From an uncultured bacterium (lineage in GTDB: Bacteria; Muiribacteriota; Ozemobacteria; Ozemobacterales; Ozemobacteraceae), in assembly GCA_964472075.1 (NCBI GenBank), contig CAYYIY010000002.1, forward strand, positions 23,771 through 87,770: a stretch of 64,000 nt of DNA, given 5' to 3'. Shown here in pieces: positions 10,784-35,716 of this stretch (positions are counted from its first letter, which is position 1; every line of letters starts with the position of its first letter). Both the position numbers and the translations under genes were made by a program. The notes beneath the pieces are model-generated. The model had not been told where the DNA came from. It saw nothing but the letters and a program-made list of their open reading frames with translations, and ran no database searches.

Positions 10784-10788
10784 AGCCT

Positions 10789-11025
10789 ATGGCAGCGGCA
10801 CTCTTTGACTTCTGTCTGATTCTCCTCCTGTTGGGATTTTTTCTCTACGGCCTGCGGGAGTGGGATCATCTGCTGGCCGACCCGGAGGACGAACATCGCG
10901 GCAAACCGGGAGGAGCGGTCGAACCTCTACCTGCCGGTCGGAAAATCGCGATCTGGGTTCTGGTTGCCGGTCTGGGGTTGGTCGCGCTGGCGACCGATCT
11001 GCTGAGCTGGTGGCGCGGCGAGTAA
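10789..11025 (+). CDS. Small two-TM membrane protein, hypothetical
   Basis: The 78-aa ORF has two hydrophobic helices and GC3-biased codons. The longer track ORF 10555..11025 overlaps the deacetylase gene, so it was trimmed to the first ATG after that gene's stop. There is no clear SD. Confidence 0.35.
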   Translation: MAAALFDFCLILLLLGFFLYGLREWDHLLADPEDEHRGKPGGAVEPLPAGRKIAIWVLVAGLGLVALATDLLSWWRGE

Positions 11026-11137
11026 GCCGCTTCTTTCAGAACTTTTTTCTCGAACCCTAAAGTCTTCGGCAGCTCCTGCCGATGAAAGAAGCGGGAAACT
11101 CTTTCCTGCTGACGGGAAAGACCCAAAGGAGCCTGCC

Positions 11138-14803: not shown

Positions 14804-15098
14804 CGGTTCTGAACCCGCATCATTCCGTAGCTTCTCCGACTTGTCGGATACGGAAAACTATAGCGTACACATCATGATCTTGTCCTTTTTATTCCCCTCT
14901 CGCGAAATGTGCTACTATGAGTCGGCCACGGGCAGCGCCGGGCTGGTTCCGATCAGCGAACTGAAAACTGTCTGCGTCGGCGTTTCGCCGGCTTGGGTTC
15001 CGTCTCATGCGGGGAAATGTCCTGAACGTGAGTGGGAAAATTCGATAACCAGTGAAGCTGCCGCGATTTTCCGCAAATCAAATCCCCGGGAGAACAAC

Positions 15099-15890: not shown

Positions 15891-16124
15891 TACTCCGGCA
15901 TCTGCAACCGGGGTCCTGTACGCGGTGTGCGCGGCGGGGCGATTCTTTGCCATCGATGGGAGGTGTCGGCCGCACGAGATCTCTCGCGCCGGGTTGATGA
16001 CCGCTGTGTGCACGGGAAGCCGCCCTGCGCGGTAGAAGGCGTGATGCTGCTGTCGAATCGGCGTGATTTGGAGTATACTCACGCCGTCATATCAACGGAC
16101 TTTTCTGCGCAAGGGGTGAGCCGT

Positions 16125-17288
16125 ATGTCGCCTGTTCTTCGTCTTGTCGTCGTGCTGCTGTTGATCATCGGCGGGGTCTCGACACCATGTGTCAGCGCCG
16201 CTGAGCCGGCAGCGGAAGTGCGGATCGAGCGCGAGCTGTTTCCGCAGCCGTACCAGCGTTTGCTCGACGGATACGCGTATCCCGAAGATCGTCTTCTGGC
16301 ACTGTTTCGCTGCCTGTGCGTCGCTCGCAGTGATCCGCGGTTGAGTGAGGCCATCATCAGTCTCGAGCGGGCCATTGGCGAACTCATGCGTACCCAGAGC
16401 GCCCTGTTCCGTCATCAGATCATCATCGCCGAAAATCCGAAAGAGCGAATGAGAGAGTGGTTGACCTGGTGGTCGACCACGGCTCGCCGAGCCGAGACGG
16501 CGGCGTTTGCTCCGCTGTTTCAGATGATGACGGTTGATGAAAAGCGGCGTTTCGGCTTGGAAGAACTTGAAAAAGAGTCTCTGCAGCAGGAAAACGAACT
16601 GTATGACCCGGACTATCTTGCCGCGTATGCCGACGTGATTCCTGAACGTCACGAATTTACCAGGCAGATTCACAAGGTGTACTGGTGTGAAGAAAGCGTG
16701 ACTGATCCGCTTGAAAACCTGATGACACGATTGAAGTTCGCCTTTTCAACCGAGGAAGTGCTGCGTTACCTGGTGCGTCTGCGCGGTCGTATGACTGATG
16801 GGGCGCTGCGACAGGCTCTTGCGGCTTTGCAGGAGCGTCTGGTCGTGAATCTCATCGATGATATTGTTCATGAGAACAGTGTTTTGATCGACAATGGCCT
16901 GTACGGTTCGGAGATCGCCTTTATCGGAGTGACCTCGACCGGTAAACTGCTGATTCGCGAGTCGTTGATTCGCGGGCGATTGCAGCTGTTGGTGAAGCAT
17001 GCCCGGTCGATCGACACGAACATGGATAGAGAACTGTTTGTACCGATTGTCGAGCAGGTTGGGCGGCGCCTCGTCGAACTGGGGGCGAACTCAACCGAAT
17101 CCGTGAAACAGCATCTGCAGCATATGCGCGAACGATTGCTGGAAGTTGTGAGCGATATGAGTCGGGCAACCGCTCCCGCTGACAGCATGAACGATCTGGT
17201 ACTTTTTCGCAAAATGGGAGAGTATCTGGTCGCCGAAGATCGCAACACGCTGATGCGTGGCGCGCCCGTGTTGTTCGCCAAACCGTAA
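16125..17288 (+). CDS. Hypothetical secreted protein
   Basis: The in-frame ATG at 16125 precedes a signal peptide, MSPVLRLVVVLLLIIGGVSTPCVSAA. No recognisable domain was found. Confidence 0.5.
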   Translation: MSPVLRLVVVLLLIIGGVSTPCVSAAEPAAEVRIERELFPQPYQRLLDGYAYPEDRLLALFRCLCVARSDPRLSEAIISLERAIGELMRTQSALFRHQIIIAENPKERMREWLTWWSTTARRAETAAFAPLFQMMTVDEKRRFGLEELEKESLQQENELYDPDYLAAYADVIPERHEFTRQIHKVYWCEESVTDPLENLMTRLKFAFSTEEVLRYLVRLRGRMTDGALRQALAALQERLVVNLIDDIVHENSVLIDNGLYGSEIAFIGVTSTGKLLIRESLIRGRLQLLVKHARSIDTNMDRELFVPIVEQVGRRLVELGANSTESVKQHLQHMRERLLEVVSDMSRATAPADSMNDLVLFRKMGEYLVAEDRNTLMRGAPVLFAKP

Positions 17289-17333
17289 ACTGAAACCGTC
17301 GACTTTTCGTCAGTTGTCTTCAGGAGGAAGATC

Positions 17334-17876
17334 ATGAAAAGACCCGTGTTGTTTGTGATGTTCGCGATTGTCCTGGTTGTATCTGCGACTTTTTCCCTTT
17401 CAGCCGTAACTCCCGCGGAGTGGAATCTCGGAGATCTCGGAACGGTGAAAGTTCTCGAGGGCACCCCGGTTCCCGACGTGACGGGGCGGTTCGATAAGCT
17501 GGTTCTTGTCCCTGCGGATGGCAAGGAAGAGCAGAAGGTGATCTTCGAGACCGAAGGTCGCATTCTTGACAAGTGGGAAGTCGTCAGCCTCGATGGTAGC
17601 GGCACCAAACAGTTACTGTTGACCCTTGATCCTGGTGGAAACGGCGGATTCAAGGAGTTTGCCCTGCTCACCCCCGCGAACGGCAGCTTTGAGGTGATCT
17701 GGGAAGAAACCATGAAAATGGGTGCGGCGGAAGTGAAAGATGTGAATGGAGATCAGAAACCTGACCTCGTTCTTTCCGGGACAGAAATGGATCCGGCGAC
17801 CGGCAAGATAGGACCGAAGACTCTCGAGTTTGCCTGGAAGGACGGCAAACTGGTTGCTCTCTCTCAGCCTGAGTAA
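17334..17876 (+). CDS. Hypothetical secreted protein with an FG-GAP/VCBS-like motif
   Basis: A signal peptide is present. DVNGDQKPDLVLSG resembles an FG-GAP calcium-binding repeat. A strong terminator follows. Confidence 0.55.
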   Translation: MKRPVLFVMFAIVLVVSATFSLSAVTPAEWNLGDLGTVKVLEGTPVPDVTGRFDKLVLVPADGKEEQKVIFETEGRILDKWEVVSLDGSGTKQLLLTLDPGGNGGFKEFALLTPANGSFEVIWEETMKMGAAEVKDVNGDQKPDLVLSGTEMDPATGKIGPKTLEFAWKDGKLVALSQPE

Positions 17877-22298: not shown

Positions 22299-22440
22299 AA
22301 ACTCTGAAAGTGTGCTTCCGAACCCGTTTTTGCCGCCGGAAAAATTTCTGTTACGCGGCGAAGTCGGGCGGTGGTATTGATGAGTGAAAGTTGGAAAGGT
22401 GAAGTAGTCTTGCATCGAGATTCCAGCAGGAGGAACGAGT

Positions 22441-23280
22441 ATGAGCATGCATAGATTGAGACGGCTCTGTAAAGGCGGATTGTTTCTGCTCTTCATCTGT
22501 CTGATGTCGATCAGTCTGACCGGGTGCGCCTGGTTGGCCGCTTTGGCTCCGATTCTGTCGGCGATTGGTTCGGTTACCGGCATGGTTGGATCAATCGTCA
22601 GTATCTTCAGCCCTGAGACCGGCAGCAAGATCAGTCAGGTCGGCAATGCGATCTCCAGTACTGGTCAGAGTTTGCAGGGAGTCGCGAACGAAACCGGCGG
22701 CCGGCAGACAGGGCAGACGACTTCGTCTGTTCCTACCGGTACGAGTGCCCCCACAACCTCAGAAGACGGAACGACGATTTCGAGCTCGGCTACGACAGGG
22801 ACCTCGTCGACTTCTTCCTCGTCTTCGACCGGTACGACGTCTGGTGCGACGAGTGCTCCCGCTGTTGCCGCCGGCGGAAGCGCCGCGTCAAACGCCCAGT
22901 CGATGCTGTCGAGCGGCTTCATCAATCGCGGCTCAAAGGCGTTCGACGGCCGTCTCAACATTACGCAGTACGGCGGGCCGAGCGATCGTACCAAGGACAA
23001 ATACACCGAAATGGGTCTGGGCAATCGGAACAACAAGCTGCGCCCGACATCTCTGGCTCTTTCCCCTGATCTCATTCGCAAATACGGGTTGAAGGGTGGC
23101 GAGTCGATCTACATCAAAACCCCCCAGGGAACCAGGTTTCTCGGTCATTATGACGACACGACCGGCAACAAGAGTGAACCGAACGTCATTGATATCTATG
23201 ACAAAACCGACAGTCTCGGTCAGGACAATTTTCTTGCGACTATTCCGAAGGGCCAGTGGGAACTGGTGATCGGTCGATAA
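22441..23280 (+). CDS. Lipoprotein with an S/T-rich linker and a C-terminal 3D-like (MltA/RlpA-type) domain
   Basis: The lipobox is LTGC. A glycine-zipper hydrophobic segment follows. The C-terminal region, LALSPDLIRKYGLKGGESIYIKT...GHYDDTTG...NVIDIYDK, resembles the 3D domain. AGGAGG precedes the start. Confidence 0.55.
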   Translation: MSMHRLRRLCKGGLFLLFICLMSISLTGCAWLAALAPILSAIGSVTGMVGSIVSIFSPETGSKISQVGNAISSTGQSLQGVANETGGRQTGQTTSSVPTGTSAPTTSEDGTTISSSATTGTSSTSSSSSTGTTSGATSAPAVAAGGSAASNAQSMLSSGFINRGSKAFDGRLNITQYGGPSDRTKDKYTEMGLGNRNNKLRPTSLALSPDLIRKYGLKGGESIYIKTPQGTRFLGHYDDTTGNKSEPNVIDIYDKTDSLGQDNFLATIPKGQWELVIGR

Positions 23281-23293
23281 AAGGAGAACGAAC

Positions 23294-23935
23294 ATGAACA
23301 GCAATTCAGTTACTGTAAATCGAATACCGTTATCAAATGCTCGTGTAGTCTTGTCTCGACTCGTACTCATGGTTTTCTGCATCGCTCTGCTCGCCTCGGC
23401 GAACGTCGCTCAGGCGGTTTCCGAAGGCAATCCCGTGCCGATGAAGATATTGCCGCCGTCCGTCGATGCACCGGGTTCGCTTGATCAGGTAAAGGCGCCT
23501 GCCGGTGATCTGACCATGTTCTATTTGTTCCAGCCGCCCGAAGCCGCTCGATTTGGAGTCGTTGGAAAAGACGGCGGCATTGTCTGGGAAAAGGTTGCCG
23601 GGTTCCGCCCCATGGTCGACTACTTCTGGTCGAAAGACGGCACGAAGATCTTCTATGTCACCGACTGTATTCAGCCCGAGGCCGAACTGCGGTCGGAGTC
23701 TGACAAGACCCGAAGCTGGTTTTTTGTCCTGGATGCCGAGAGCGGAAAAACGCTTGCGGAAGGCGATCTGGATACCGACCTTCTGAATCTGCCGAAACAG
23801 TTGCCTGACGCGGTTGGGGCGTCTCACCTCATCGAAGCGACCTTCGAAGGTGACGTCATTACCGTGACGATCGATCACCAGGGGAAGAAAGTCAGTGCCT
23901 CGAAAGCGCTGAAAGATCTCAAACCGAGCAAGTAA
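23294..23935 (+). CDS. Hypothetical secreted protein
   Basis: AAGGAG precedes the start and a signal peptide is present. No recognisable domain was found. Confidence 0.5.
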   Translation: MNSNSVTVNRIPLSNARVVLSRLVLMVFCIALLASANVAQAVSEGNPVPMKILPPSVDAPGSLDQVKAPAGDLTMFYLFQPPEAARFGVVGKDGGIVWEKVAGFRPMVDYFWSKDGTKIFYVTDCIQPEAELRSESDKTRSWFFVLDAESGKTLAEGDLDTDLLNLPKQLPDAVGASHLIEATFEGDVITVTIDHQGKKVSASKALKDLKPSK

Positions 23936-24035: not shown

Positions 24036-24446
24036 TCAGACTTTTTGGGCCTCGATGACGGCCTGTGCGAGAGTCGGTACAAGTTCGGCCTGTGGCACGA
24101 CTCCGGCCAGTTTGATGACTTTGAGGACCACCGGGCAGACACCGACGAGCAGCAGGTGACCGGCAAAATCCTCGATCGTGCGCACCGTCAACTCCAGCAG
24201 CTGGGCGACTCCCATACTGTTCATCACCGGGCAGGCGGACAAGTCGACGATTAATCGGGTCTTCCCCTTCACCAGCGCCGCATCGGCAAGAGTATTCAGT
24301 TCTTTGCCGAGGCCTTCATCGAAATATCCGTTGACGGTAAAGACCGGGATTCCTTCCTGTTCTCCCGCTTGAATGACTGCTTTCACGACGCCCTCCTGTA
24401 CTCTGTGTACCCGCTCAATCGCAGGACCCAGGTAAGGGAATATCAT
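24036..24446 (-). CDS. STAS-domain protein (anti-sigma-factor antagonist, SpoIIAA/RsbV-like)
   Basis: The 136-aa protein contains LIVDLSACPVMNSMGVAQLLEL...LVGVCPVVLKVIKLAG, which matches the STAS fold pattern. Confidence 0.7.
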   Translation of the reverse strand: MIFPYLGPAIERVHRVQEGVVKAVIQAGEQEGIPVFTVNGYFDEGLGKELNTLADAALVKGKTRLIVDLSACPVMNSMGVAQLLELTVRTIEDFAGHLLLVGVCPVVLKVIKLAGVVPQAELVPTLAQAVIEAQKV

Positions 24447-24577
24447 AATCCGCGCACCTCATCAATCCGATCCGGAGTGGTCAGACCGTCTTCAGTGCCA
24501 GGCGGGGAAAATGAGACCAAGAGGATGTGATATACTTTGCGAGCTTCAGACTTCTTCTGTCAGAGGGTTCCCATCCC

Positions 24578-26929
24578 ATGTCCGAACAGGAACACCTTCA
24601 ACACTTGCGCGAGCTGCAGGCTCCGTTGAAATCGTTTCGCCTGTTTGCCATCGAACACTTCATCCGCGAGGGGCAGAGCCGTGAGATTGCTGCTGCGCTC
24701 GATGCGGCACTCATGAACGAGACCGACGAAGAATGTCGTATTCTGCTGGGGCATGCGATTTCCGAGGTGAGACGGCGCCTGGCGGCCTCGCTCGAGCCGC
24801 CTGCACGGGGAATGGAGGAGGTCGGCGGCGCGGAGTTCCCGGCCCGTTTTGCCGCAGCGGATTCGGCGGATCGCCTTACCCTGCTTCGACAGTTGCGCAA
24901 GGCGGATCTGTCGGCGTTGGCCGAGTTTGCGGTCGGCGCCTTTCAGCGCGAAACTCATCCGTTGGTCGCCCGCGACCTGATTCGCTGTTTCACGCCTGCA
25001 TGGCCCCAGGAAGCTCGTTCGATTCTCGGTCGGGCGCTGGCCTCGGAATGGCAGACCGTGAGATTCGCGGCTCTCGAAGCGCTGATCGCCATCGCGCCGC
25101 GCGACCTGCTGGCGTATCTGCCCGGTCTTCTGCGGCATGCCGACCCGAGAGTTCGCAGTATGGCCATCCGAGCGCTTGCCGCGATCGATGCTCCTGAAGC
25201 CGCTCGGCATCTGGAAGCTCAGCTGCTGGGCGGGGAGCGCGAAGGGCGCTGGTCTGCCTTGCGTGAGTGTGCGCGACTTCCGTTTGAACTGACCCGCTCC
25301 GTTCTTTTCGCCTATCTCGAAACCGAAAAAGATCAGGAACTGCTTGAAGCTGCCGGAGCGATCATTCTGGCGAATCCGGAGGTCGAAACGCCTTTTCGTC
25401 TCGCGGACCTGCTGTCGCGGCGTTCCGATCTGGGGGCGTGGCTCGGCCCTGTTCTTCAGAACAGCATTGCCGTCCTTCGTGATTCCGGGCAGCTGACGGA
25501 GGATAGCGACTCGTACCGCACACGAGTGCAGCAGTATGTCGATCGGCTTGCGGCACGTCGCCTGGTGCATCGGGCCGTCTCGGCGCTGGCATCGGGCGAT
25601 TCAACGCAGCAGGCCGAAGGCGGGACGTTGTTGCGTCAGCATCTGAACCGGCCTGTCGTTCGACAACTGCTCGAGGAAACGGTGCGTCAGGAATTGCCCG
25701 CCTTGCTTCAGCAGCAGCTGAGTGAGATTCTGCAACCCGAAAGCATGTCGCCGGCCGCCCCTGAGCTGGATCAATGGCCGTCGTCTGCTCCCGAGTCCGA
25801 GCAGTTGCGGTGGCTGGCGACTCGGCAGGCGGAACAGGTTCAGCAGTGGAGGCCTGCGGTCGAGAAGCTCGTGACAGACAGCTCCATTCGTTCGACCCTG
25901 AAAATCGGCGCTCTGCGTGCCCTGACTCGGTGCCGAACGAGCGGTTCGGCGTCCGCCGTGTTCCCTCTTCTCAATCATGCAGACGACGGTGTTGCCGCCG
26001 CAGCACTCGAATATCTCGGCTTTGCCGCTCCAGACGAGGTAGTTCCGCTTATCGGCAAGTACTTGAAAGCTGCTCGCCCGCGCGTGAGACTGGCGGCGAT
26101 TCGAGTCCTGCGGTCGGTCGATCCGTTCCAGGCTGTTTCCTCTCTGTTCAAGCTTCTCGAAACCTGCACTCCCGACCAACGGTCTCTGACCATGCAGTGT
26201 CTGGTGCAGTTCGAGTTTTCCCTGATTCGCGACCGTCTGGCCAATCTGTTGGAAAGCGGAAAAGCGCCGGAGATTCTTGAAGATGCTCTTGCTCTCTTCG
26301 ATGCCAACCCGGATGTCGGCTCTCTCTACCTGCTCTTTCGCCTGGGCCGACGCCTGGGAGGCAAACATGAACAGCGAATCGACCAGGTGCGAGCACGAGT
26401 GTCGGAACTCTTGATCGCCTCCGGGCAGTTGACCCCGGAAACGCTGAAGACCCTCGAAAACGGATTCCCGCAGCGTCTGCAGCTTGAAGACATTCGACGT
26501 GCCGGCCCGCGACCGGCCTACGCTCTTGCCGAGCTGGAACAGGAACCGGAGCGCGTGTGGCCGGTTCTGCGCGACACGATGCGACAGATGTTTCGAGAAT
26601 ATGGTCGCCACCTGCTCATTGCTCTCGTCGTCGGTTTGATTCTCGCCTGGGCGTTCGGTTTGCGACAGGTGCCGGTCGAAGTGCGTGCACGCTCTGGAGC
26701 GCTCATCCAAAGCGAAGTGACACGGGGTGAAGGAATGCTTCTGCAGGTCACGGATTATGGGTGGAAGATTCGGCTCACGAATGGCGTGATTTGGCATCTG
26801 TCCCCGCCGCCTGGCGGATTCCCCTTTATCATCGAAGGCATGAAGGTTGTGGTCGAAGCATCTCTCTTCAGACGCACGTCCGAAGGTGTCTTTCAAGGGC
26901 GCTGTGTTTCGTTCAGAATCAGCTTCTAG
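24578..26929 (+). CDS. HEAT-repeat protein with a C-terminal TM helix
   Basis: Repeated motifs with the pattern '..D..VR..A..AL..I' (HEAT/PBS-lyase type) occur, for example DPRVRSMAIRALAAI and RPRVRLAAIRVLRSV. One TM helix lies near the C-terminus. The start was chosen as the ATG at 24578. Confidence 0.6.
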   Translation: MSEQEHLQHLRELQAPLKSFRLFAIEHFIREGQSREIAAALDAALMNETDEECRILLGHAISEVRRRLAASLEPPARGMEEVGGAEFPARFAAADSADRLTLLRQLRKADLSALAEFAVGAFQRETHPLVARDLIRCFTPAWPQEARSILGRALASEWQTVRFAALEALIAIAPRDLLAYLPGLLRHADPRVRSMAIRALAAIDAPEAARHLEAQLLGGEREGRWSALRECARLPFELTRSVLFAYLETEKDQELLEAAGAIILANPEVETPFRLADLLSRRSDLGAWLGPVLQNSIAVLRDSGQLTEDSDSYRTRVQQYVDRLAARRLVHRAVSALASGDSTQQAEGGTLLRQHLNRPVVRQLLEETVRQELPALLQQQLSEILQPESMSPAAPELDQWPSSAPESEQLRWLATRQAEQVQQWRPAVEKLVTDSSIRSTLKIGALRALTRCRTSGSASAVFPLLNHADDGVAAAALEYLGFAAPDEVVPLIGKYLKAARPRVRLAAIRVLRSVDPFQAVSSLFKLLETCTPDQRSLTMQCLVQFEFSLIRDRLANLLESGKAPEILEDALALFDANPDVGSLYLLFRLGRRLGGKHEQRIDQVRARVSELLIASGQLTPETLKTLENGFPQRLQLEDIRRAGPRPAYALAELEQEPERVWPVLRDTMRQMFREYGRHLLIALVVGLILAWAFGLRQVPVEVRARSGALIQSEVTRGEGMLLQVTDYGWKIRLTNGVIWHLSPPPGGFPFIIEGMKVVVEASLFRRTSEGVFQGRCVSFRISF

Positions 26930-27018
26930 ACAGGTGGCAAAAAGTTGTTACGTTTCTGAAGGCACTATCGGTATTGCTTGCAGAACGTCTCGAATTTCAA
27001 GATCGGGGAGGTTGAAGT

Positions 27019-27645
27019 ATGGATATGCGTCTCATGCGTCGGTGGTGTCGAGGCGGACTCTTCGTGGTGTTTCTGGTGTTCATGTCGGTCAGTTTGACGG
27101 GGTGTGCGTGGCTGGCGGCTCTGGTGCCGATTCTGAATGCGATCGGCGCTGTAACCGGTATGGTCGGGGCGATTGTCAGTATATTCAACCCGGAAATAGG
27201 CGGAAAGATTTCTCAGGTGGGTGGGGCGGTTCAGCAGGGTGCGGCATCGCTGGGTGAGGCGGCCGCGCAGTTTCCGCAGACTTCTCCCGGAGGTGCAGCT
27301 CAGACGTCCTCGGCAGTTCCTACCGGAACTTCGGCCTCGACCAACAGTGAAGACGGCGGCAATGCGGCCGGCGTGCCTGATTCGACGCCGATCAACGTCC
27401 GTCCGGCTTCCCCGGCGAATTCCGGCTCAACCGGTTCGAAACCTTCTGCCGCTGCCGCTGCGAAACCGGCTCCGAGACCCGAAGGCGGCGTGGATCTCTC
27501 GAACCCCAATCCTGGTCCGTTTCTGCCTGAGTACAAACCGGCCTTTGATCAGCCGAGCAAGCCGGCGGGTGGTGAAAAGCCGGCGGATGGGAACAAGCCG
27601 ATTGACCTGTGGAACCCCAATCCAGGAACCATTTTGAAGGATTGA
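27019..27645 (+). CDS. Lipoprotein, paralog of 22441..23280 over the N-terminal module, with a proline-rich tail
   Basis: About 70% identity to the 22441 product over the first ~110 aa: the LTGCAWLAAL lipobox, the glycine-zipper helix and the SSAVPTGTSASTNSEDG segment. The C-terminus diverges into a PxxP-rich tail. GGGGAGG precedes the start. Confidence 0.6.
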   Translation: MDMRLMRRWCRGGLFVVFLVFMSVSLTGCAWLAALVPILNAIGAVTGMVGAIVSIFNPEIGGKISQVGGAVQQGAASLGEAAAQFPQTSPGGAAQTSSAVPTGTSASTNSEDGGNAAGVPDSTPINVRPASPANSGSTGSKPSAAAAAKPAPRPEGGVDLSNPNPGPFLPEYKPAFDQPSKPAGGEKPADGNKPIDLWNPNPGTILKD

Positions 27646-27742
27646 GCGAACACCGTGCGACTTGTTCCTCCGACATCGGTTGTCGAGGAATGGGATGAAA
27701 CTTGACCCATGATGCAGGAAACTGAAGCGGAAAGGAGCGGGA

Positions 27743-28297
27743 ATGGACCGGGCGGCGACGCGAGTTGACGACGAACGGGCCGTTGCCGAGGTTCTTGCCG
27801 GTCGCCGCGAGGCTTTTGATCGACTGGTGGTGCGTTATCTGGGTCCGGTTCAGGGCTACTTTCGCGGGTTCGGGTGCGCCGATCGGGCCGATGACCTGAC
27901 GCAGGAAGTGTTTATTCGGGCTTTTCGCTACCTGGGTTCGTACCAGACGGAGAAGTCGTTTCTCAGCTGGCTGTTGGGAATTGCCCGCAATGTCAGAAGA
28001 GATCTCAAGCCCTCTCTCGCGACGCCCACGGCCCCTGAAACCATGCCCGAAAGGGCTGGCGAGGGGCCGTCGCTCGAAGAAACAGCGGTTGCCGGAACCG
28101 AGGTCGAGGCGATTCTGTCGGTATTCCCCGCTTCCGATCGGCTCATCATCGAGTTGCGTCTGTTTCAGGAACTGGCCTATGCCGAAATCGGCGAACTGCT
28201 CGACCAGACCGAGGCGAACGTGCGGGTCAGATACCATCGCGTTCTCGCCCGTCTGCGTCAGGTCGTCCAGGAACGCAGGAGCATGCAACATGTCTGA
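27743..28297 (+). CDS. ECF-type RNA polymerase sigma factor (sigma-70 regions 2 and 4)
   Basis: Region 2 is LTQEVFIRAFRYLGSY. Region 4 is an HTH, ELAYAEIGELLDQTEANVRVRYHRVLARLRQ. AAAGGAG precedes the start. Confidence 0.85.
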   Translation: MDRAATRVDDERAVAEVLAGRREAFDRLVVRYLGPVQGYFRGFGCADRADDLTQEVFIRAFRYLGSYQTEKSFLSWLLGIARNVRRDLKPSLATPTAPETMPERAGEGPSLEETAVAGTEVEAILSVFPASDRLIIELRLFQELAYAEIGELLDQTEANVRVRYHRVLARLRQVVQERRSMQHV

Positions 28298-28811
28298 ACC
28301 AACCATCTGTGAAGTGATTGCCGAGACTCTCGGCAGCGGGTCTACTCTGTCTCCGGCGCAGACGTCGCATGTGAATTCGTGCCCGGCCTGCCGCGATCTG
28401 CAGTCCGGGCTTGCTCAGGTGAAAGCCGCCGGGTCCGCGTTCCCGGCGGTCGCGGCCGGCTCACCGCTGCTGGCGCGGATTCGGCAGTCCGTGGCGACTG
28501 AACCGCTGCCGACGCCTGTCGTCTCCGGGACAACAGGGCCGGCGATTGCCACAGCCGGGCTGGGTGCGGGCATGCTGTTGCCGGCAATTGTGATATGCTT
28601 GCTGCTGGCGGCCTTGCTCTGGAATGCCGTGCCGCCGACGGTTCCTGCTGTGTCGCCCGGGAGCAGTGCCCCGGCAACGGCGGGGGCGGTGCTCGTCGAG
28701 ACCATCGAGTCCATGACACCGGCCTCGTCGTCGTTTGTGATCACTCCTCCGGCTTCCGGTGCGGCGTCTGCGTCCTCGGCTCCGACTCAGAGCGAAGAAG
28801 GGAACAGATAA
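28290..28811 (+). CDS. Anti-sigma factor (zf-HC2-like, single TM)
   Basis: An ATGTCTGA 8-nt overlap with the sigma gene. A CPACRD zinc-finger-like motif and a TM helix, GMLLPAIVICLLLAALLWNAV, are present. The track ORF was trimmed to the coupled ATG at 28290. Confidence 0.6.
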   Translation: MSEPTICEVIAETLGSGSTLSPAQTSHVNSCPACRDLQSGLAQVKAAGSAFPAVAAGSPLLARIRQSVATEPLPTPVVSGTTGPAIATAGLGAGMLLPAIVICLLLAALLWNAVPPTVPAVSPGSSAPATAGAVLVETIESMTPASSSFVITPPASGAASASSAPTQSEEGNR

Positions 28812-30894
28812 ATTGAATTATACGGGTCAATTAGCAAAGCGATTCTCATCAGGCGCGGCTTTGCAGCTGATTCTCTTTCTGGTGTTGATCGTTTCAGGGG
28901 TGACTCTGGCGTTTTTTCAGCTGTCAGCGCAGGCACAACGAACGGCTTTTCGACTCGAACGCGGCGAAGTTCTGCGGCAGATTGTCGAGGCCGCCGATGA
29001 AGAGGCATTTGCGGTACTGCTGGCGGCGCTTGAAAACCCAGGCAGCACTTCGTTTCAGTGGCTCCTCGATCAGGGACGGAATCCGAAGGTTCTTCCCATT
29101 CAGGCTCCACTGACCGCGCAGACGGCGGCGACCATGGTCAGGGCCAGGCAGAAAACGACCCTCACGGTGGAAGCCCGGGTGGTCGACTTTACCCCGCGCG
29201 ATTTTGAAGGTGTGCCCTATTCAAGCGACGTGCGCGAAGGGGTCGGACGGATAGAGCTGACGACCATCTGTCGCCTGACCGACACCGGCGGCGGTGGTGG
29301 CGATGCCATCTGTCGCCTGATTCGCCGCCGTGACTACAAGATGGCCGCCATCGTGACGCCGCGAGGTTCCGGTCGCACCGGCGCCTCTCAAAATGCCGCT
29401 CTCGACTATGCGCTGCTTGTACGCCAGGGCCTGCAGGAGTTTCAACAGACCGGGGGGTTGATGCTGAACCAGAATCGTGTCCGTCTGGTCATCGATGCGG
29501 CGGGCGTGCCGTCGGGAAAACGGGGCAAAATTCGCTTCGGCGGCGCAGACGGCGTGGGAAACGCGATCGTCTGGCTGCAGATCGACGAGGCACGAAAGTC
29601 CATGTTGCCGACCGCGAAAACCCCGATTGAAATCACGAACCCGGAGTGCGAAACCTTGTTCGATCTGGCCGGCTGGCGCCGGCAGGAGATCGAAGCGAAG
29701 ATCAAACAGGCGAAAGAAAAGCTCGGTTCGAATTACAACGGCGATATCGAAGATTACATCAAAGCCGATACGGTGAAAAAGTTTCGCGGTATCGTCGGGG
29801 AGTTCAAGACCGGCGTGGTTCCGCTGGCCGCGAACGGTCCGACCGAGGCTGCCGACAAGATTCGTCAGTATCTCTGGTCTGAAGAGTGGAAAAAGGCGGC
29901 CGGCGGGTTACGGAATGTTCCCGACCGGTATGATGTGCCAAGTCCGGGGTGTGCCATGTTGAGCGAGAATGCGGGCGATGTTACCGCCGCTCTCGCGCAG
30001 GAAGTGTTGGAAGGCGGCATTCGCCAGCGTTTTCTCTACCATGCGACAATGTTTCTCGATATCTCGTCACTTGAAGACAAAGACAAGGCCGATGAGATCG
30101 CGAAGAAGCCCTGGTACGGATTCAACCCCGCGCCGTCCGGTCTTTCCGGGGCGGCCGATCAACGGTTTTACGATCGGTTGCCGCAGGTCGATGCGGCGAA
30201 GGGGGGCGGTCACCCGTTGTTTTCGCGTTTTGATGCCTCGTTCCTGTTCGGTGTCGGCGGCGGCAGCCTGGATGCTGCTCCCACCGATGCCGCGTTCCCT
30301 ATCGGACCGCTCTTCAACCGCCGCGGCAGCAGGATCTCGCCGGACCAGACTGGGACTGAAGGGTTTCGACCGTATTCAGGGTTCGGGCTGTGGGCGCGAC
30401 GACTTGACCGCGCGGCCTTTCTGCGGAGCGGCATGTATGACGCACAGGCCGGGCGTCTCCATATCGATGGAATTGTACAAATCATGGGGGGTGCGGGCGA
30501 CATTCTGAGTCTCGGGTCTCCCGACAAGCCGCTTCTCATCAGCGGCCGCGGCGTGCTGGTCGCCCCCGGGTTTCAGATTCGCGGCGAGATTCGCAAGGCT
30601 GACCCGGCGCGTGACCTGCTGGTGCTGATGACAAGACGCGGCAACATTCTGATCGACACGTCGCAACCCGTCGAAGCGTCGCTGATCGCGGCCGGTGACG
30701 ACCTGCAGCGCTCCGTCATTCCGTTGAAACCGATGCAGGTGACCGGTGCCGTCGTCGTCGATCGACTGAACACGCATCAGTGGTGCGCCGGCGAACATCG
30801 CCTGCGTTATGACGAGCATCTGCAGGTGCCCGAACCGCTGTTTCGCCCCGCGATCAGCCGGTGGGTGGTCTTCGAAAGGCTGGCGGAAGAATGA
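28759..30894 (+). CDS. Large hypothetical protein with an N-terminal TM anchor
   Basis: A single N-terminal TM helix (ALQLILFLVLIVSGVTLAFF) is followed by a soluble region of ~650 aa with no recognisable motif. The real start may be the TTG at 28813, directly after the anti-sigma stop and preceded by GAAGGGA. Confidence 0.55.
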   Translation: MRRLRPRLRLRAKKGTDKLNYTGQLAKRFSSGAALQLILFLVLIVSGVTLAFFQLSAQAQRTAFRLERGEVLRQIVEAADEEAFAVLLAALENPGSTSFQWLLDQGRNPKVLPIQAPLTAQTAATMVRARQKTTLTVEARVVDFTPRDFEGVPYSSDVREGVGRIELTTICRLTDTGGGGGDAICRLIRRRDYKMAAIVTPRGSGRTGASQNAALDYALLVRQGLQEFQQTGGLMLNQNRVRLVIDAAGVPSGKRGKIRFGGADGVGNAIVWLQIDEARKSMLPTAKTPIEITNPECETLFDLAGWRRQEIEAKIKQAKEKLGSNYNGDIEDYIKADTVKKFRGIVGEFKTGVVPLAANGPTEAADKIRQYLWSEEWKKAAGGLRNVPDRYDVPSPGCAMLSENAGDVTAALAQEVLEGGIRQRFLYHATMFLDISSLEDKDKADEIAKKPWYGFNPAPSGLSGAADQRFYDRLPQVDAAKGGGHPLFSRFDASFLFGVGGGSLDAAPTDAAFPIGPLFNRRGSRISPDQTGTEGFRPYSGFGLWARRLDRAAFLRSGMYDAQAGRLHIDGIVQIMGGAGDILSLGSPDKPLLISGRGVLVAPGFQIRGEIRKADPARDLLVLMTRRGNILIDTSQPVEASLIAAGDDLQRSVIPLKPMQVTGAVVVDRLNTHQWCAGEHRLRYDEHLQVPEPLFRPAISRWVVFERLAEE

Positions 30895-31382
30895 AACGAC
30901 GCTTGCAGTCGAGACGCCGGAGCGCCGCCTTCACGCTGATCGAGATCGTCATCGCTCTCGCTTTCATGGCTCTGGCTCTGCTCGGCTTTCTCGTCGTGGC
31001 ATCGAGCGCCAATCGACAATCCATGGATGCCTACTACGAGTTTGCGGCGTTGCAGGCAGCGCTCGAGCCGATCGAGGTGTTTCGGGCCTGCGGATTCGAA
31101 CTGATGGAGTCGTATGTCTCACATCCGCTCGAGGAATACCCGCCTGGTCTGCATGAACTGAAGGACAAACCCGGGTCGGCGGTTCAACACCCGGTCGAAT
31201 GGGAGATGTTTCAACGCGAGATCACCGTCGAACCGCCGGTACAACTTCCCTCGGCCGGTAATCGCCGCGCCGTGCGCGTCAGAGTGCGCGTGCAACCGAT
31301 CGAATCCACTCGTGCGGCCGGTTGGCTGACCCGCCCGGGAGGCGTGGCCGTCGAGAGCCTGATTGTCGAGCTGCCACGATGA
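30891..31382 (+). CDS. Prepilin-type (type II secretion pseudopilin / type IV pilin-like) protein
   Basis: The N-terminus, RRRSAAFTLIEIVIALAFMALALLGFLVV, is a class III signal with the conserved E at +5. An ATGA overlap with the upstream gene is present. Confidence 0.7.
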   Translation: MKRRLQSRRRSAAFTLIEIVIALAFMALALLGFLVVASSANRQSMDAYYEFAALQAALEPIEVFRACGFELMESYVSHPLEEYPPGLHELKDKPGSAVQHPVEWEMFQREITVEPPVQLPSAGNRRAVRVRVRVQPIESTRAAGWLTRPGGVAVESLIVELPR

Positions 31383-32236
31383 AACAGACAACGGTGTCCG
31401 AGTTGAAAAAGTGTTTGACGTTGATAATGAGCGCGAGAACGCTCATCGTGATTGCTCGCCTGTCGAACGTGCGCAGCCGGAGACGAATCACCTCGCAATA
31501 TGGGGCCGGCGCCGGAGTGACCCTGGTCGAGCTGCTGGTGGCGATAATTTGCTTCATGCTGGTCATGCTTCCGGTGTTTCAGGCTTTTTTGTCTGGGACC
31601 CGCACATCACTGACCGGCATGATGCAGGTGGAGACCACCATGGAAGCTCGACGCGCCCTGCGTCAGATTCACGCCGATCTGAAAGCCGCCTGTCTGCCGT
31701 TCGACAATCGTGGTTTGCAGGTGACGCTCGATCAACTGCTCTCTTCGGCGCTGAGCGACTCAGGACAGATTGCCTATTCGTTTCATGCCTTTCCCCGACA
31801 TGTCGATCCGTCGCGCACCATTGTGACCGAAGCGAGTGGGTTGAAACCGCATGTCGCCAATCGCATCATCTATCGTCTCGAGGTTCGCAAGCCTGGAGAC
31901 CCGCGCAAACAGCTGATCAGGGAAGAACGACCGCATGCGGGAACCGGCGAGACGGTGCGCACGACGGTTCTGTCCGAACGGGTCAACCATTTCGAGATTC
32001 GCACGGTGAACTTTCGCGGCAAAGTGCCGAGGTCGGCGTTCTTCGTCACGCTGCAACTCGTCGACTCGACCGAGACCGGTGCTCTCGATCGTTTACAGCC
32101 GGGCAGCGCCGATAAGCCGCGTGGTGTCGTGCTTGCCGATTACTGCGATATGATCGCTCCGACCTTCGTCTCTTCAATGCTGGCGCAGGAGGGAGTGAAT
32201 CGTACTTGGTACTCTGAACTGAGAGGAGCGCCGTGA
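31379..32236 (+). CDS. Prepilin-like protein with an unusually long leader
   Basis: GAGAG|VTLVELLVAIICFMLVMLPV is a prepilin cleavage/methylation-like motif, but it begins about 47 aa after the ATGA-coupled start. Alternative internal starts are possible. Confidence 0.5.
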   Translation: MKQTTVSELKKCLTLIMSARTLIVIARLSNVRSRRRITSQYGAGAGVTLVELLVAIICFMLVMLPVFQAFLSGTRTSLTGMMQVETTMEARRALRQIHADLKAACLPFDNRGLQVTLDQLLSSALSDSGQIAYSFHAFPRHVDPSRTIVTEASGLKPHVANRIIYRLEVRKPGDPRKQLIREERPHAGTGETVRTTVLSERVNHFEIRTVNFRGKVPRSAFFVTLQLVDSTETGALDRLQPGSADKPRGVVLADYCDMIAPTFVSSMLAQEGVNRTWYSELRGAP

Positions 32237-35151
32237 CCTCGGGGGTGTCCTTTTCGACTTATTCACGCCTTCTGAAGTGGCTGGGTCAGATTCTGATCTT
32301 CTTCGCGATTCCGCTCATGGTCATTACCGCCGGGTTCGAACGGCTCTGGGATAGACAGGAACGAGACTGCCAGGAACAGACATTCACGCGCCTCGACCGC
32401 AATCTGGCTCTGCTGCGCAAGCGCTCGAATACGATCATCTATCTCGGACAGCAGTTTGAAGCCTTGAAGGAATACATGCGCCAGTCACCGGCTCGCGAAC
32501 GTCGCGAACGGGTGACCCGAGCCGTACGTACGCTTCACGCTCGCTTTCCCGGCATGTTGCGTATCGCCGTGTTTGATGGAAAAGGAAATCGTCTGGCCGG
32601 TGAACTTGATCCGACGATTCCCGAATCGATGGTGCGTCGCCTCAGCGAAGTTCTGTGCGGAGACAAGGCGAGCAGACAGGCTGCGGCTGCTCGTCACCGC
32701 CCCATTCTTGCGGCCTTCATGGGGCCGGGAGTCGACCCGGAACATCTGGCGACCACGGGCAGAATTCGCCCCCAGGATGCCAATCCGGGCGGTGAATGGC
32801 GCTGGGTCTCATATACCAGCGCCAAGTTCGGTGCATTCTGCATCCAGATTCGCTTCGTGCCCGACTGGGACCTCATTCCCGTTCGAGATCAAACGCGACT
32901 GTTACGCACTCTGCGACCGAAGCGACTGGTCGACTTCGGCCTCGTCGACATTCGGCGTCAGTCGCATGCGCCGGCCGACGTCGCTGCAGCGCTTCGACAA
33001 TATGCCGTCTCGACACGATCGCATCATGTTCTGCCGGCATCGCTCGTCGCTCTGCAGCAGATCGATGCGGGCGTGTTCATCTGGGCCTCTTTTCCGAGGA
33101 GACTGCTGGGGAACTTTGACGGCCGCCGACAGCAGCTGATTTTCTGGGTCGCGATCGCCTTCAGTATTCTCTCCGTTGTTTCTGCGCGCATCATGTTCGG
33201 ATCGTCCGGGTTCGTGCTTTCGATTCGCCCGCGTCTGATTCTGCTTTTTGCTTTTGCGGGAGGCGTTCCGCTTGTGTTGATCGCTTTCGTTCAATGGGAT
33301 TCCCTTCTGGATCTGGAAAAGCGCCGCAGCCGTGAGATGATGGAGGTTATGGAACGCCATCTGCAGGCGATGGACAGTCGTTATGCTGATCTGCGTGCCG
33401 AGATGGAACAGAAGCTGGGAAAGCTGCTTCGGCAGGATCGATTCGCGGAGCTTGAGGCCGGCAACGGCTGGCGAGACGTGCTGGAAATCGTTCGCCAGTC
33501 TTTTTCGCCACGCGAAATGTACCTGTTCACTCCGGCAGGGAAACCGCTTTTGCGCTATCAAGAGACCGGTAATCCTCCGTACACGGACAAAAACATTCGT
33601 GAGGAAGGATCGGTTCGCCTGCTCGGCAGCTTGATTCGCACGTTGTGTGCGCAACTGCAACCGGTTGAGAATCAGGGAAGCGGTGAGATGGCCATGACGA
33701 TCGCCGAACAGTTTACCGGCGGTGGTCTCCCGGTCGGCGAAATGGTTTCCAACCTCGGAAAAGTCTTTGAAATCAGCCTTTTTCGCGACCAGCACTGGGT
33801 CTATCTGCAGCCGCTGCGCAACGCAAACGGTCGTATCGAGCGCATGGTGAACATCTCCTGGAAGCGAGACTTACTCGAAGGCGTGTATCTCCAGCGCGTG
33901 ATTCCGGAATTCGAAAGGATCATGCCCGGTGTTCGATTGATGGCCTGGAGTCCGATGACATCACCCGTACCGATTCCGGCTTCCTTCCCTATGTACGGTT
34001 CCTTGAGGGCCTTTCTGGCTCAGGTTGAAGCGCAGGGGGGAACGGTGTTCGGCGATCATCAGATACGCGGCCGTCGCTATCTGCTGACGGGGTTGAAACC
34101 GCGACGACTCTCTGATTACCTGCTTCTTGCGCTCTGTGAAGACGATTTCATCAGAAACGAGCGAGCGAAAACGATTCGGCAGATGGCCGGGTTCACCTTC
34201 GGATTGTTCGCCGTCACGCTGTTTCTCGGCTATCTGCTGTCGCAGCGTTTTCTGCGGCCGATCGGACACCTGACCACCGGCATTGAGGCCATTTCTGCGC
34301 GTGAATTCAAACATCGATTGCCGGTTGAAGATCTGGATGAACTCGGACGATTGTCGCAGACGTTCAATCACATGATGGAAGGATTGTCCGACCTGGCGGT
34401 TGGTCGAATTGTCCAGGAAAGCCTGTTTCCAACGGAAGAACTGGTCGTCGGATCATACCACGCCTTCGGACAGACACATGCTGCTACCGAACTCGGCGGA
34501 GACTATTACGACATCAAGCGTTTGCCTGACGATCGAATTCTGCTGATCATCGGCGATGTCACCGGACACGGCGTCGGACCGGCGATGGTCATGGCGATGG
34601 CGAAGATCATGGTCGAATACTGTCTGAGCGACTTTGATCTCGAGAGATTCACGGTTGCCTTCAACGATGCGTTGTTCAAACTCATGAAACGCAGGCGCTT
34701 CATGAGCTGCTTTCTGGCTATTGTCGACACGAAGCGACACCTGATACAGATGGTGAATGCCGGCCACAATTTCCCTTATCTGGTTCATGGTTCGGCGAAA
34801 CTGCTCGAAGACCTCGGCAATAGTTATCCGATCGGCAGTCGGTCGACGCTCAAGCCGAAAGTGGTCGAAATGCCGATCGAACCCGGAGACACGCTCGTAT
34901 TCTACACGGATGGTTTGATCGAAACCGAAGCTGACAGTCGGCAGATCGGTTATGAGGGCGTCGCGGCGGTGTTGCCGACCTGTATTGACGCAAATGTGCC
35001 GGCCTCTTGCGAACGTATCTGGACCTGGAACCGCAATCAGGCTCGCGGACAACGCCAGGAAGACGACATCACGGTTCTGCTGTTGCAGAGACAAGCAGTA
35101 CCTGTTCTCGAAGATCAGGCGAAGGACTGCCAGGGGCCTGGCGTGTGCTGA
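32233..35151 (+). CDS. Sensor protein with a TM-flanked extracytoplasmic domain, HAMP, and a PP2C/SpoIIE-type serine phosphatase (RsbU-like)
   Basis: PP2C motifs are ELGGDYYD, IGDVTGHGVGPAMVMA and FYTDGLIE. A HAMP-like segment precedes them. Two TM helices flank a periplasmic domain of roughly 300 aa. A GTGA overlap with the upstream gene is present. Confidence 0.8.
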   Translation: MTSGVSFSTYSRLLKWLGQILIFFAIPLMVITAGFERLWDRQERDCQEQTFTRLDRNLALLRKRSNTIIYLGQQFEALKEYMRQSPARERRERVTRAVRTLHARFPGMLRIAVFDGKGNRLAGELDPTIPESMVRRLSEVLCGDKASRQAAAARHRPILAAFMGPGVDPEHLATTGRIRPQDANPGGEWRWVSYTSAKFGAFCIQIRFVPDWDLIPVRDQTRLLRTLRPKRLVDFGLVDIRRQSHAPADVAAALRQYAVSTRSHHVLPASLVALQQIDAGVFIWASFPRRLLGNFDGRRQQLIFWVAIAFSILSVVSARIMFGSSGFVLSIRPRLILLFAFAGGVPLVLIAFVQWDSLLDLEKRRSREMMEVMERHLQAMDSRYADLRAEMEQKLGKLLRQDRFAELEAGNGWRDVLEIVRQSFSPREMYLFTPAGKPLLRYQETGNPPYTDKNIREEGSVRLLGSLIRTLCAQLQPVENQGSGEMAMTIAEQFTGGGLPVGEMVSNLGKVFEISLFRDQHWVYLQPLRNANGRIERMVNISWKRDLLEGVYLQRVIPEFERIMPGVRLMAWSPMTSPVPIPASFPMYGSLRAFLAQVEAQGGTVFGDHQIRGRRYLLTGLKPRRLSDYLLLALCEDDFIRNERAKTIRQMAGFTFGLFAVTLFLGYLLSQRFLRPIGHLTTGIEAISAREFKHRLPVEDLDELGRLSQTFNHMMEGLSDLAVGRIVQESLFPTEELVVGSYHAFGQTHAATELGGDYYDIKRLPDDRILLIIGDVTGHGVGPAMVMAMAKIMVEYCLSDFDLERFTVAFNDALFKLMKRRRFMSCFLAIVDTKRHLIQMVNAGHNFPYLVHGSAKLLEDLGNSYPIGSRSTLKPKVVEMPIEPGDTLVFYTDGLIETEADSRQIGYEGVAAVLPTCIDANVPASCERIWTWNRNQARGQRQEDDITVLLLQRQAVPVLEDQAKDCQGPGVC

Positions 35152-35236
35152 AATCGATGGAATTCTTTGGTTGTTGGTTCCCCTGGTCGTTGTTCAACAT
35201 TGCGGCCTGTGCGAAGTTTCGTACCCAGGATCATGC

Positions 35237-35716
35237 ATGGAACCTGTGAACATGGAAATCGTCGAAGCCTGGTATCAGGAACTGGAGAGCTTTTCCTGCA
35301 TTGCGGGTTGTACGGCGTGTTGCAAAGGCGTTTTGTCCGTTTCAGTGCCTGAGTTGTGGCGCATGCACGAGTTCTTCGGAGCAGTGCCGGAGATGCAGTC
35401 GGGTTGCCCCTTTCGGGGTGAGGCCGGGTGCCGCGTGTACCCGGTGAGACCCTTCATGTGTCGGTTGTTCGGGTACCAGTTTCTGCACCCTGACATGACC
35501 ATTCAGCCCTACTGCACCCGCCGGCATCAGATGCGCCCCGGCGATCGACCGGCGATTCTGATGCAACAGTATCAGCGATTCTGCGAAGAACAGGGCTTTG
35601 TCATCATCGGCCGGCTCTCCGGCAACGAATCGTCTGCCGTGCTGAGCGCTGAGAACGACTCCACCCTGGCCCGCTTTCCCGAACTCGAACGTTTCCGCTC
35701 GATTCTCGCCCGCTGA
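35237..35716 (+). CDS. YkgJ/UPF0153-type cysteine-cluster (putative Fe-S/zinc-binding) protein
   Basis: Motifs CIAGCTACC and FMCRLFG are present. The track ORF was trimmed to the ATG at 35237. Confidence 0.55.
   Translation: MEPVNMEIVEAWYQELESFSCIAGCTACCKGVLSVSVPELWRMHEFFGAVPEMQSGCPFRGEAGCRVYPVRPFMCRLFGYQFLHPDMTIQPYCTRRHQMRPGDRPAILMQQYQRFCEEQGFVIIGRLSGNESSAVLSAENDSTLARFPELERFRSILAR

Follow-up and report, generated by a model that had tools for sequence, protein, structure and literature searches.

A recurrent gene module of Riflebacteria that may join a core minor-pilin-like set to its own regulators

In a 64,000-nt stretch of DNA from an uncultured member of the Ozemobacteraceae (assembly GCA_964472075.1, contig CAYYIY010000002.1, positions 23,771 to 87,770; hereafter the window), three overlapping genes for pilin-like proteins are flanked by genes for an extracytoplasmic function (ECF) sigma factor and its anti-sigma factor on one side and for a sensor phosphatase on the other. 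Our analysis suggests that this block represents one of many copies of a module that we encountered in Riflebacteria alone and that combines a core minor-pilin set for priming or capping a filament with regulators of its own, a reading to which we assign a probability of roughly 0.55. The evidence that carries it is the recurrence of the same gene families, in shuffled order, at diverged loci, together with the predicted folds of two of the three pilin-like proteins (the three hereafter the trio) and an ECF-type promoter-like motif common to the loci.

Extent and recurrence of the gene block

Seven plus-strand open reading frames (ORFs) listed in the first-pass annotation of the window were all present. 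They encode, in order, a lipoprotein-like envelope protein of 208 aa (27019..27645), an ECF sigma factor (27743..28297), a ZAS-type membrane anti-sigma factor (28290..28811), a PilX/GspK-type pilin-like protein of 693 aa (28813..30894), a type IV pilin-like protein of 163 aa (30891..31382), a type IV pilin-like protein of 285 aa with a predicted GspJ fold (31379..32236) and a sensor phosphatase of 972 aa (32233..35151). Reading the DNA directly confirmed that the sigma and anti-sigma genes overlap by 8 nt (ATGTCTGA at 28290-28297) and that the last four genes are joined by 4-nt stop/start overlaps (ATGA at 30891-30894, ATGA at 31379-31382 and GTGA at 32233-32236), which favours coupled translation. 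The large pilin-like protein had been given as 693-711 aa; the ORF is indeed open from GTG 28759 (711 aa), but its start is most likely TTG 28813 (693 aa), since this gives a leader of orthologue-like length and lies one base after the anti-sigma stop.

The block proved to be wider than these seven genes. It also includes a minus-strand gene for a single-domain STAS protein of the anti-sigma-antagonist type (24036..24446; Pfam STAS, E 4.6e-10), which the first-pass annotation had correctly placed upstream, and a plus-strand gene for a HEAT-repeat membrane protein of about 785-800 aa (24527..26929; Pfam HEAT_2), which it had missed. In two metagenome-assembled genomes (MAGs) of Candidatus Ozemobacteraceae the order is identical, namely STAS on the minus strand, HEAT, a protein of ~200 aa, ECF sigma factor, anti-sigma factor, proteins of ~690, ~154 and ~250 aa, and HAMP-PP2C phosphatase. 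The genes outside this block differ between the window and its orthologous loci and the inner order is the same, so the conserved unit runs from the STAS gene to the phosphatase gene. Close relatives of the 711-aa ORF (63-72% identity) were obtained by word-indexed homologue search only from Candidatus Ozemobacteraceae MAGs. The block probably extends further, over 22441-23935, where two plus-strand genes encode a 279-aa mucin-like, low-complexity, P/A/S-rich protein (22441..23280) and a 213-aa protein with no Pfam hit (23294..23935). The former accompanies the module at loci L001 and L003 (L numbers are our labels for individual loci) and is a paralogue of the 27019 gene according to cross-hits between the hidden Markov models (HMMs) of the two families, LIPO and U279; the latter is kept beside it in orthologous loci only.

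To determine how widely the module occurs, we scanned genome contigs with a profile built from the small-pilin alignment and obtained 15 loci, all in Riflebacteria MAGs; a scan of metagenomes added 31 loci. A first scan of genome contigs with the large-protein alignment yielded no loci. Several genomes carry paralogous loci, with four in nHGRbin4, three in nDJH14bin3 and two in Ca. Ozemobacter sibiricus. The loci were annotated with HMMs built from the window proteins and with flanks of 10 kb, and the counts depend on both; among 29 non-redundant copies, the 19 with at least 6 kb on both sides were used for counting. The large, small and GspJ-fold genes were always contiguous and in the same order. 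In the 19 well-flanked loci they were accompanied by a HEAT gene in every case (19/19), by an ECF sigma gene in 15/19, an anti-sigma gene in 15/19, a STAS gene in 14/19 and a homologous sensor-HAMP-PP2C gene in 10/19, making the HEAT membrane protein the most constant partner of the trio. Conservation in related genomes, which the first-pass annotation had named as a check on its proposal, was found for the content of the block across dozens of diverged loci and for its order in the two orthologues. Elsewhere the order and strand were shuffled, as in the arrangements LIPO, trio, HEAT (-), STAS, PP2C; ECF, anti-sigma, trio, HEAT, STAS, PP2C; and trio, PP2C (-), STAS (-), HEAT (-). Conserved content in shuffled order, with only 25-45% identity between the recurring families, strongly supports a functional unit.

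Individual loci showed further features. At L018, two complete trios (255-3708 and 7954-11337) lie 4 kb apart with one common HEAT/STAS/PP2C set, and the two genes of unknown function between them are found again at two paralogous loci of that genome, L012 and L022. At L007, two DDE transposase genes (13507-17616) directly follow the GspJ-fold gene, in the position taken elsewhere by the sensor phosphatase; this module, which has no PP2C gene within 10 kb, may have been disrupted. L020 carries a divergent gene for a GAF-MshEN-T2SSE (PilB/MshE-like) ATPase at 1925-4327 on the minus strand, adjoining the HEAT gene. Outside the window, a 682-aa paralogue of the large pilin with 30% identity (P0045) probably marks a second module elsewhere on the contig of the window.

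The three pilin-like proteins

The trio looks like a core minor-pilin set of the GspK-GspI-GspJ type with a ComZ-like large subunit, although all three proteins fall below the sequence-model thresholds of the GspK, GspI, GspJ and ComZ families. Word-indexed searches are nearly blind to these families, with four matches for the large protein, three for the N-terminal region of the sensor phosphatase and four for a 99-sequence profile, and the family of the large protein was revealed by an exhaustive HMMER search, which gave 162 cluster representatives, mostly full length (640-730 aa). All members with a named organism are from Riflebacteria, and one of them is labelled PilX by the Joint Genome Institute. 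Their N-termini follow the consensus RRG[FMVI]xL and continue into a hydrophobic helix with no Glu at +5, the pattern of PilX and GspK; the window protein reads RFSSG↓AALQLILF (RG↓AALQ in its feature entry; the arrow marks the end of the leader), likewise without Glu5. Its fold model, predicted with confidence, comprises an alpha-1 helix (residues 13-73) and a pilin beta-sheet (residues 113-181), to which a helical insert and a C-terminal beta-solenoid are joined. ComZ was the top Foldseek match of this model, which may also resemble GspK. At the sequence level, no similarity to ComZ was detectable, the Pfam T2SSK model was not reached and a PDB sequence-profile search with the large protein gave nothing significant.

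The two smaller proteins belong to families with the canonical prepilin motif [G/A]↓F-[ST]-L-x-E and an invariant Glu5. The N_methyl motif was found in 17/18 members of the 163-aa family and in 28/29 members of the 285-aa family, and the window copies (RRRSAA↓FTLIE and G↓VTLVELLV, respectively) lie just under the Pfam cutoff (18.2 vs 21.2 bits). Judging by its size, its position and weak NCBIfam matches to PilV and XpsI that are confined to the N-terminus, the 163-aa protein is probably the GspI/PilV equivalent. The 285-aa protein scored 19 bits against the gspJ model TIGR01711 (cutoff 64.85), again over the N-terminus only; its model, a helix at residues 14-67 plus sheets, is confidently predicted to have the GspJ fold. 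In the PDB sequence-profile search, the matches of both small pilins were pilin N-terminal helices only.

The 285-aa protein had also attracted attention at first pass for its long leader. The 46-aa leader does exist in the ORF, but it stems from an insertion specific to this genome and is not a trait of the family, in which leaders measure 8-18 residues in orthologues and 3-25 in 29 family members. Alignments with L001, L003 and L024 indicate that the window keeps the ATGAAAC start, after which about 38 additional codons are inserted in frame (31386..31499, plus strand, boundaries approximate); the closest relative, L024, reads ATGAAACCG...MKPKIRLG↓VTLIELL. Translation probably starts at 31379, because the ATG of the stop/start overlap is retained at every locus. 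We considered a repeat or mobile element as the source of the insertion and found no other copy in the window or the loci. Within it, a perfect 7-bp inverted repeat (ATGAGCG-CGAGAA-CGCTCAT, 31427-31446) is preceded by the bases TTGATAATGAG, which loosely resemble a Fur-box half-site.

These features bear on the possibility that a stray or decaying fragment of a type II secretion system (T2SS) or type IV pilus (T4P) locus happens to lie between unrelated regulators. The separation from such loci, remarked on at first pass, was upheld, as no T2SS or T4P machinery genes were found among the window ORFs scanned (Pfam), and this, like the failure of Pfam to recognise the globular parts of the proteins, is what a stray fragment would look like. 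However, the comparative data contradict it: the partners recur in diverged and rearranged loci, HEAT in all of those counted and the others in 10-15 of the 19, a promoter motif is common to the loci, the large-subunit family is extensive and mostly full length, and the invariant Glu5, the nearly universal N_methyl motif and the confident fold models argue that the pilin copies are not degenerate, as the first-pass annotation had allowed they might be. We therefore regard chance adjacency as extremely improbable. The premise of the first-pass annotation that prepilin-type genes are normally found with ATPases was not supported, in that minor-pilin operons are commonly separate, as is fimU-pilVWXY1E (PMC5979040).

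Regulation of the module and the direction of signalling

The product of the first gene of the probable operon carries a lipobox-like motif (LTGC) and a second hydrophobic segment and ends in a P/A/S/G-rich tail; no Pfam or NCBIfam match was obtained for it. Together with the 22441-23280 product it forms part of one uncharacterised family of low-complexity envelope proteins (LIPO), which recurs in the modules, often in several copies each. The sigma factor consists of sigma-70 regions 2 and 4 only (Pfam Sigma70_r2 and r4; TIGR02937, 71.4 bits vs a cutoff of 42.9). The anti-sigma factor has an N-terminal C...HVNSCPAC sequence conforming to the C...HxxxCxxC motif, a single transmembrane (TM) helix and, in the periplasm, a short tail rich in S, A and P. 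No Pfam model matched it, and its zinc site is assigned by the motif, which is kept in 11/11 members of the family; some paralogous anti-sigma factors carry a FecR-like periplasmic domain.

Upstream of this gene set, 73 nt before the 27019 start codon, lies the promoter-like motif TGTTACGTTTCTGAAGGCACTATCGGTA (TGTTAC-N17-CGGTA; 26946..26973, plus strand). The pattern derives from TGTTATC-N16-CGTA before the sigma genes of four diverged loci and was generalised to TGTTA[CT]-N16-18-[CT]G[GT]?TA. In its shape, a conserved -35 block combined with a -10 block that contains CGT, it corresponds to ECF promoters. The motif is the sole strict match in the window, where 0.04 would be expected by chance, and it occurs at the same place in two orthologues of the window locus; with a relaxed pattern, a near-match with one mismatch (TGTTAC-N17-TGGTA; 22349..22376, plus strand) was found 65 nt upstream of the 22441 gene. 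In 606 kb of non-redundant loci (both strands) the generalised pattern occurred 23 times, and 15 of these occurrences were at most 200 nt upstream of a LIPO gene (10/26 genes) or an ECF gene (5/21 genes), compared with none upstream of about 220 other module genes. The pattern is partly post hoc from the same data, the independent check being the loci in which it precedes LIPO genes. The motif ahead of 27019 supports the earlier proposal that the 'lipoprotein' gene is the first of a single transcription unit, and in other loci the motif would place a LIPO-STAS operon in the same regulon. A generic scan of the window for sigma-70 promoters and terminators performed at chance level and was uninformative.

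The last gene of the set encodes a sensor in which four predicted TM helices bound two extracytoplasmic regions of ~265 and ~290 aa, followed by HAMP and PP2C domains (Pfam HAMP and SpoIIE/PP2C; SpoIIE E 7.9e-39), with invariant metal-binding, catalytic aspartates (D757, D775, D893, D944 and D945). Its best NCBIfam match was SiaA, over the HAMP region only (51 bits vs a cutoff of 700), and its N-terminal 650 aa had, by sequence, no relatives outside the module and none among solved structures. The STAS protein, whose true start probably lies about 20 codons inside the ORF, has a phosphorylatable Ser (N-S-x-G) that is conserved in 16/16 module STAS proteins. The HEAT protein, with a probable start at ATG 24578, has one C-terminal TM helix (residues 697-715) followed by a beta-rich extracytoplasmic tail of ~85 aa; a PDB sequence search with it matched HEAT repeats only. 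In agreement with the first-pass annotation, no RsbW-like kinase was found among the window ORFs scanned. We also searched the loci for any additional family, such as a kinase, that recurs among them, but clustering of the unassigned ORFs joined unrelated GAF-domain proteins only.

STAS and phosphatase vary together. All 12 adequately flanked loci with a PP2C sensor carry STAS, while in a clade of five loci (L016, L028, L029, L032 and L035) a class III nucleotide cyclase replaces PP2C and STAS is missing from all (0/5). The sensor of the cyclase clade (~960-1030 aa, sometimes two in tandem) keeps the homologous N-terminal region of ~700 aa and the HAMP domain. This co-variation and the swap of output suggest that PP2C and STAS belong together and that the input of the sensor is tied to the trio.

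The swap of output also lends support to another explanation, in which the trio is itself the sensor. A short pseudopilus in the periplasm, or the membrane pool of its subunits, would be sensed by the four-TM phosphatase and possibly the anti-sigma factor, and the signal would pass from PP2C through STAS to a cytoplasmic output, with no separate adhesive or secretory task for a filament. That the N-terminal region of the sensor stays beside the trio while PP2C gives way to a cyclase suggests that the input ties the two together, and a diffusible cyclic nucleotide (cNMP) as output looks like reporting to the cell. In the window type, moreover, the stop codon of the GspJ-fold gene overlaps the start of the sensor gene, and the FecR-like periplasmic domains on some paralogous anti-sigma factors recall cell-surface signalling. 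There are precedents in the feedback of minor pilins and PilY1 on FimS-AlgR (PMC5979040) and in the surface sensing of Synechocystis (bioRxiv 10.64898/2026.02.12.705559). However, many modules keep the trio with no sensor or no STAS, and the elaborate beta-solenoid is typical of tip adhesin or receptor subunits in real filaments. The position of the promoter motif points the same way: the sensor phosphatase lies behind an ECF-type promoter in the window, as STAS does elsewhere, which would make both of them outputs of the sigma factor and place the phosphatase layer after the sigma switch, in line with the btr locus of Bordetella (PMC7498569). On balance we consider it somewhat unlikely that the trio is the sensor. 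The proposal of the first-pass annotation that pilins, sigma/anti-sigma pair, HAMP-PP2C protein and STAS form one coupled device thus stands as far as a conserved module is concerned, but the direction that it gave, with pseudopilins feeding a partner-switching cascade, is not supported, because the position of the promoter fits a downstream role as checkpoint or feedback at least as well.

A more far-reaching form of signalling, which we regard as unlikely, would make each module a private channel of a new kind of cell-surface signalling, with a short type IV filament bearing a ligand-specific beta-solenoid cap as its extracellular receptor. The state of the filament would be passed on in the inner membrane to the ZAS- or FecR-type anti-sigma factor for transcription and to the four-TM sensor for PP2C-STAS or cNMP output, with the HEAT protein as a cytoplasmic scaffold. 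Many such channels, running in parallel in one cell, would play the role of the TonB-dependent transducer/FecR/ECF systems or of the sigma/anti-sigma pairs of Bacteroides polysaccharide utilization loci.

Another explanation is regulation from upstream with no feedback, whereby the phosphatase would sense an external ligand through its two periplasmic domains and the sigma/anti-sigma pair envelope or redox stress, both serving only to choose which alternative tip set is expressed or used, and the pilins would never signal. This agrees with the finding that the paralogous modules of a genome each come with a divergent sensor and a divergent sigma factor; it would fit alternative minor-pilin sets that prime specialised filaments (bioRxiv 10.64898/2026.02.12.705559), and the direction is that of the Bordetella Btr system (PMC7498569). 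It leaves unexplained the position of the sensor within the ECF-driven operon of the window type, the replacement of PP2C plus STAS by a cyclase and the invariance of the HEAT membrane protein, and we consider it distinctly unlikely.

Our preferred reading, a core minor-pilin tip or priming set with its own regulators, would work as follows. The ECF sigma factor would be held at the membrane by the ZAS anti-sigma factor and, once released, would transcribe from 26946-26973 an operon that runs from the envelope-protein gene through the sigma, anti-sigma and trio genes to that of the sensor phosphatase. On the model of GspK-GspI-GspJ and ComZ-PilA2, the trio would assemble into a ternary complex that primes and caps a pilus or pseudopilus; the machinery that builds this filament would be encoded at another site, and the beta-solenoid of the large subunit would be displayed at the tip. 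The four-TM sensor with its two periplasmic domains would control PP2C via HAMP, and PP2C would dephosphorylate the serine of STAS. In what is the weakest step, STAS would then switch partner, with the HEAT membrane protein as the best local candidate, and so gate the use of the tip set or report its state to the cell. The sigma factor would thus decide when the tip set is made, and phosphatase, STAS and HEAT protein would provide a second, post-translational checkpoint or a feedback loop; several modules per genome could offer alternative tips for one filament machine.

Several observations weigh against this reading. Among the window ORFs scanned, none encodes an ATPase, platform protein, secretin, prepilin peptidase or major pilin, and the ATPase of L020 is the only filament-motor gene beside any module. 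The set has no GspH-like fourth minor pilin. Neither the sensor-PP2C gene, missing from 9/19 well-flanked modules, nor the STAS gene, missing from 5/19, is obligatory, and no STAS kinase is linked to the module, a HATPase_c_2 domain (in a HATPase_c_2-GAF-GGDEF protein) being found nearby in L008 only. For the large pilin and the sensor, the correlation of between-copy distances is only weak (Spearman 0.12). All of the evidence is computational and comes from MAGs of uncultured organisms. Distance correlations were also considered more generally as a sign of co-evolution and set aside: although positive, they owed their strength to close orthologues, and for the sensor they were weak.

The remainder of the window offered a few observations of its own. 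Rfam and tRNA scans of it were empty. Two genes encode CxxCxxCC proteins (putative zinc/iron-chelating, PF03692), at 35231-35716 (plus strand) and 59258-60067 (minus strand); the first is directly downstream of the sensor phosphatase and is not kept there in orthologous loci. At 55363-59186 (minus strand), the gene for an 897-aa HEAT-repeat protein overlaps that for a dCache-HAMP membrane protein of 377 aa with no output domain, and the pair adjoins a phosphonate-type periplasmic binding protein. This is a second pairing of HEAT and sensor proteins in the window, and its HEAT protein does not match the HMM of the module HEAT family. Four tightly packed plus-strand genes at 4925-10783 encode a HAMP-HisKA-HATPase sensor kinase, an NtrC/PilR-like response regulator that depends on sigma-54, an unknown protein of 411 aa and a TPR-polysaccharide deacetylase. 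Finally, a 2089-aa protein encoded at 46563-52832 (plus strand) combines DUF4011, an AAA_11/AAA_12 helicase, an MTES_1575 restriction-endonuclease-like domain and DUF3320, an architecture that looks like a helicase-nuclease.

Relation to known systems and significance

Every part of the module is of a known kind, be it core minor pilins, beta-solenoid tip pilins, ECF/ZAS pairs or PP2C/STAS switches. The nearest counterpart of the trio is the T2SS tip complex GspK-GspI-GspJ (PDB 3CI0; XcpX-V-W, 5VTM), whose genes run in the order I-J-K, in contrast to K-I-J here. The window set differs further in that it comes without GspG, GspH or nearby T2SS genes, is linked to regulators and exists in many copies, and its large subunit is twice the size of GspK, with a beta-solenoid instead of the GspK alpha-domain. 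In this last respect it resembles ComZ, a pilin with a grafted beta-solenoid that was argued to fit only at the pilus tip (PMC6561018), and the beta-solenoid PilX subunits for which a role as tip plug was recently suggested in the core minor-pilin sets of cyanobacteria, where two such sets prime different filaments; in Synechocystis, pilus assembly triggers cAMP-dependent surface sensing (bioRxiv 10.64898/2026.02.12.705559). ComZ-PilA2 of Thermus thermophilus and the cyanobacterial PilX sets lie in pilin clusters, however, and a private ECF/anti-sigma pair, STAS, PP2C sensor and HEAT membrane protein have not been reported with them.

On the regulatory side, the fimU-pilVWXY1E operon of P. aeruginosa likewise lies apart from motor genes and beside a dedicated membrane sensor, and its minor pilins, with PilY1, feed back on and modulate the FimS-AlgR sensor system (PMC5979040). 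That system is a single-copy arrangement with a two-component system and PilY1, whereas the module has ECF and PP2C/STAS regulators and a beta-solenoid pilin. In Bordetella, the ECF sigma factor BtrS, the anti-sigma protein BtrA along with the PP2C, kinase and STAS proteins BtrU, BtrW and BtrV jointly control a secretion machine (PMC7498569). The likeness lies in an ECF/anti-sigma pair and a PP2C/STAS switch encoded beside an envelope-spanning filament machine (PMC7498569), but there the machine is a type III secretion system and the kinase BtrW is present, in contrast to the type IV filament proteins and the absence of a linked kinase here; BtrA is a secreted anti-sigma factor and not a ZAS-type membrane protein, and BtrU is not a four-TM sensor with dual periplasmic domains. 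With SiaA of the P. aeruginosa SiaABCD system and with RsbU-type proteins, the window phosphatase has in common the plan of TM sensor, HAMP and PP2C and a presumed STAS-type substrate with a conserved serine, but it is no member of the SiaA family, and no kinase or diguanylate cyclase is linked to it.

In full-text literature searches, we found no description of a minor-pilin set combined with a partner switch and an ECF pair. What is new is that a minor-pilin set is constantly paired with a HEAT membrane protein, that a private sigma/anti-sigma pair and a sensor with dual periplasmic domains and a swappable output are frequently added, and that the whole occurs as a multi-copy module in, so far, one candidate phylum only.

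Core minor-pilin sets determine whether a type IV filament is built and which one, and both the choice between alternative sets and the reporting from filament to cell have been studied in few model species. With dozens of diverged copies in which a tip set is hard-wired to regulators, the module amounts to a natural experiment on these questions. It provides handles in two families that neither Pfam nor NCBIfam matches, the 693-aa beta-solenoid pilin with its 162 representatives and the 650-aa sensor region, as well as in a candidate ECF promoter consensus (TGTTAC/T-N16-18-CGTA) and a candidate STAS partner that is not a kinase. Should it be true that the pilins sense, the module would represent a new route of trans-envelope signalling.

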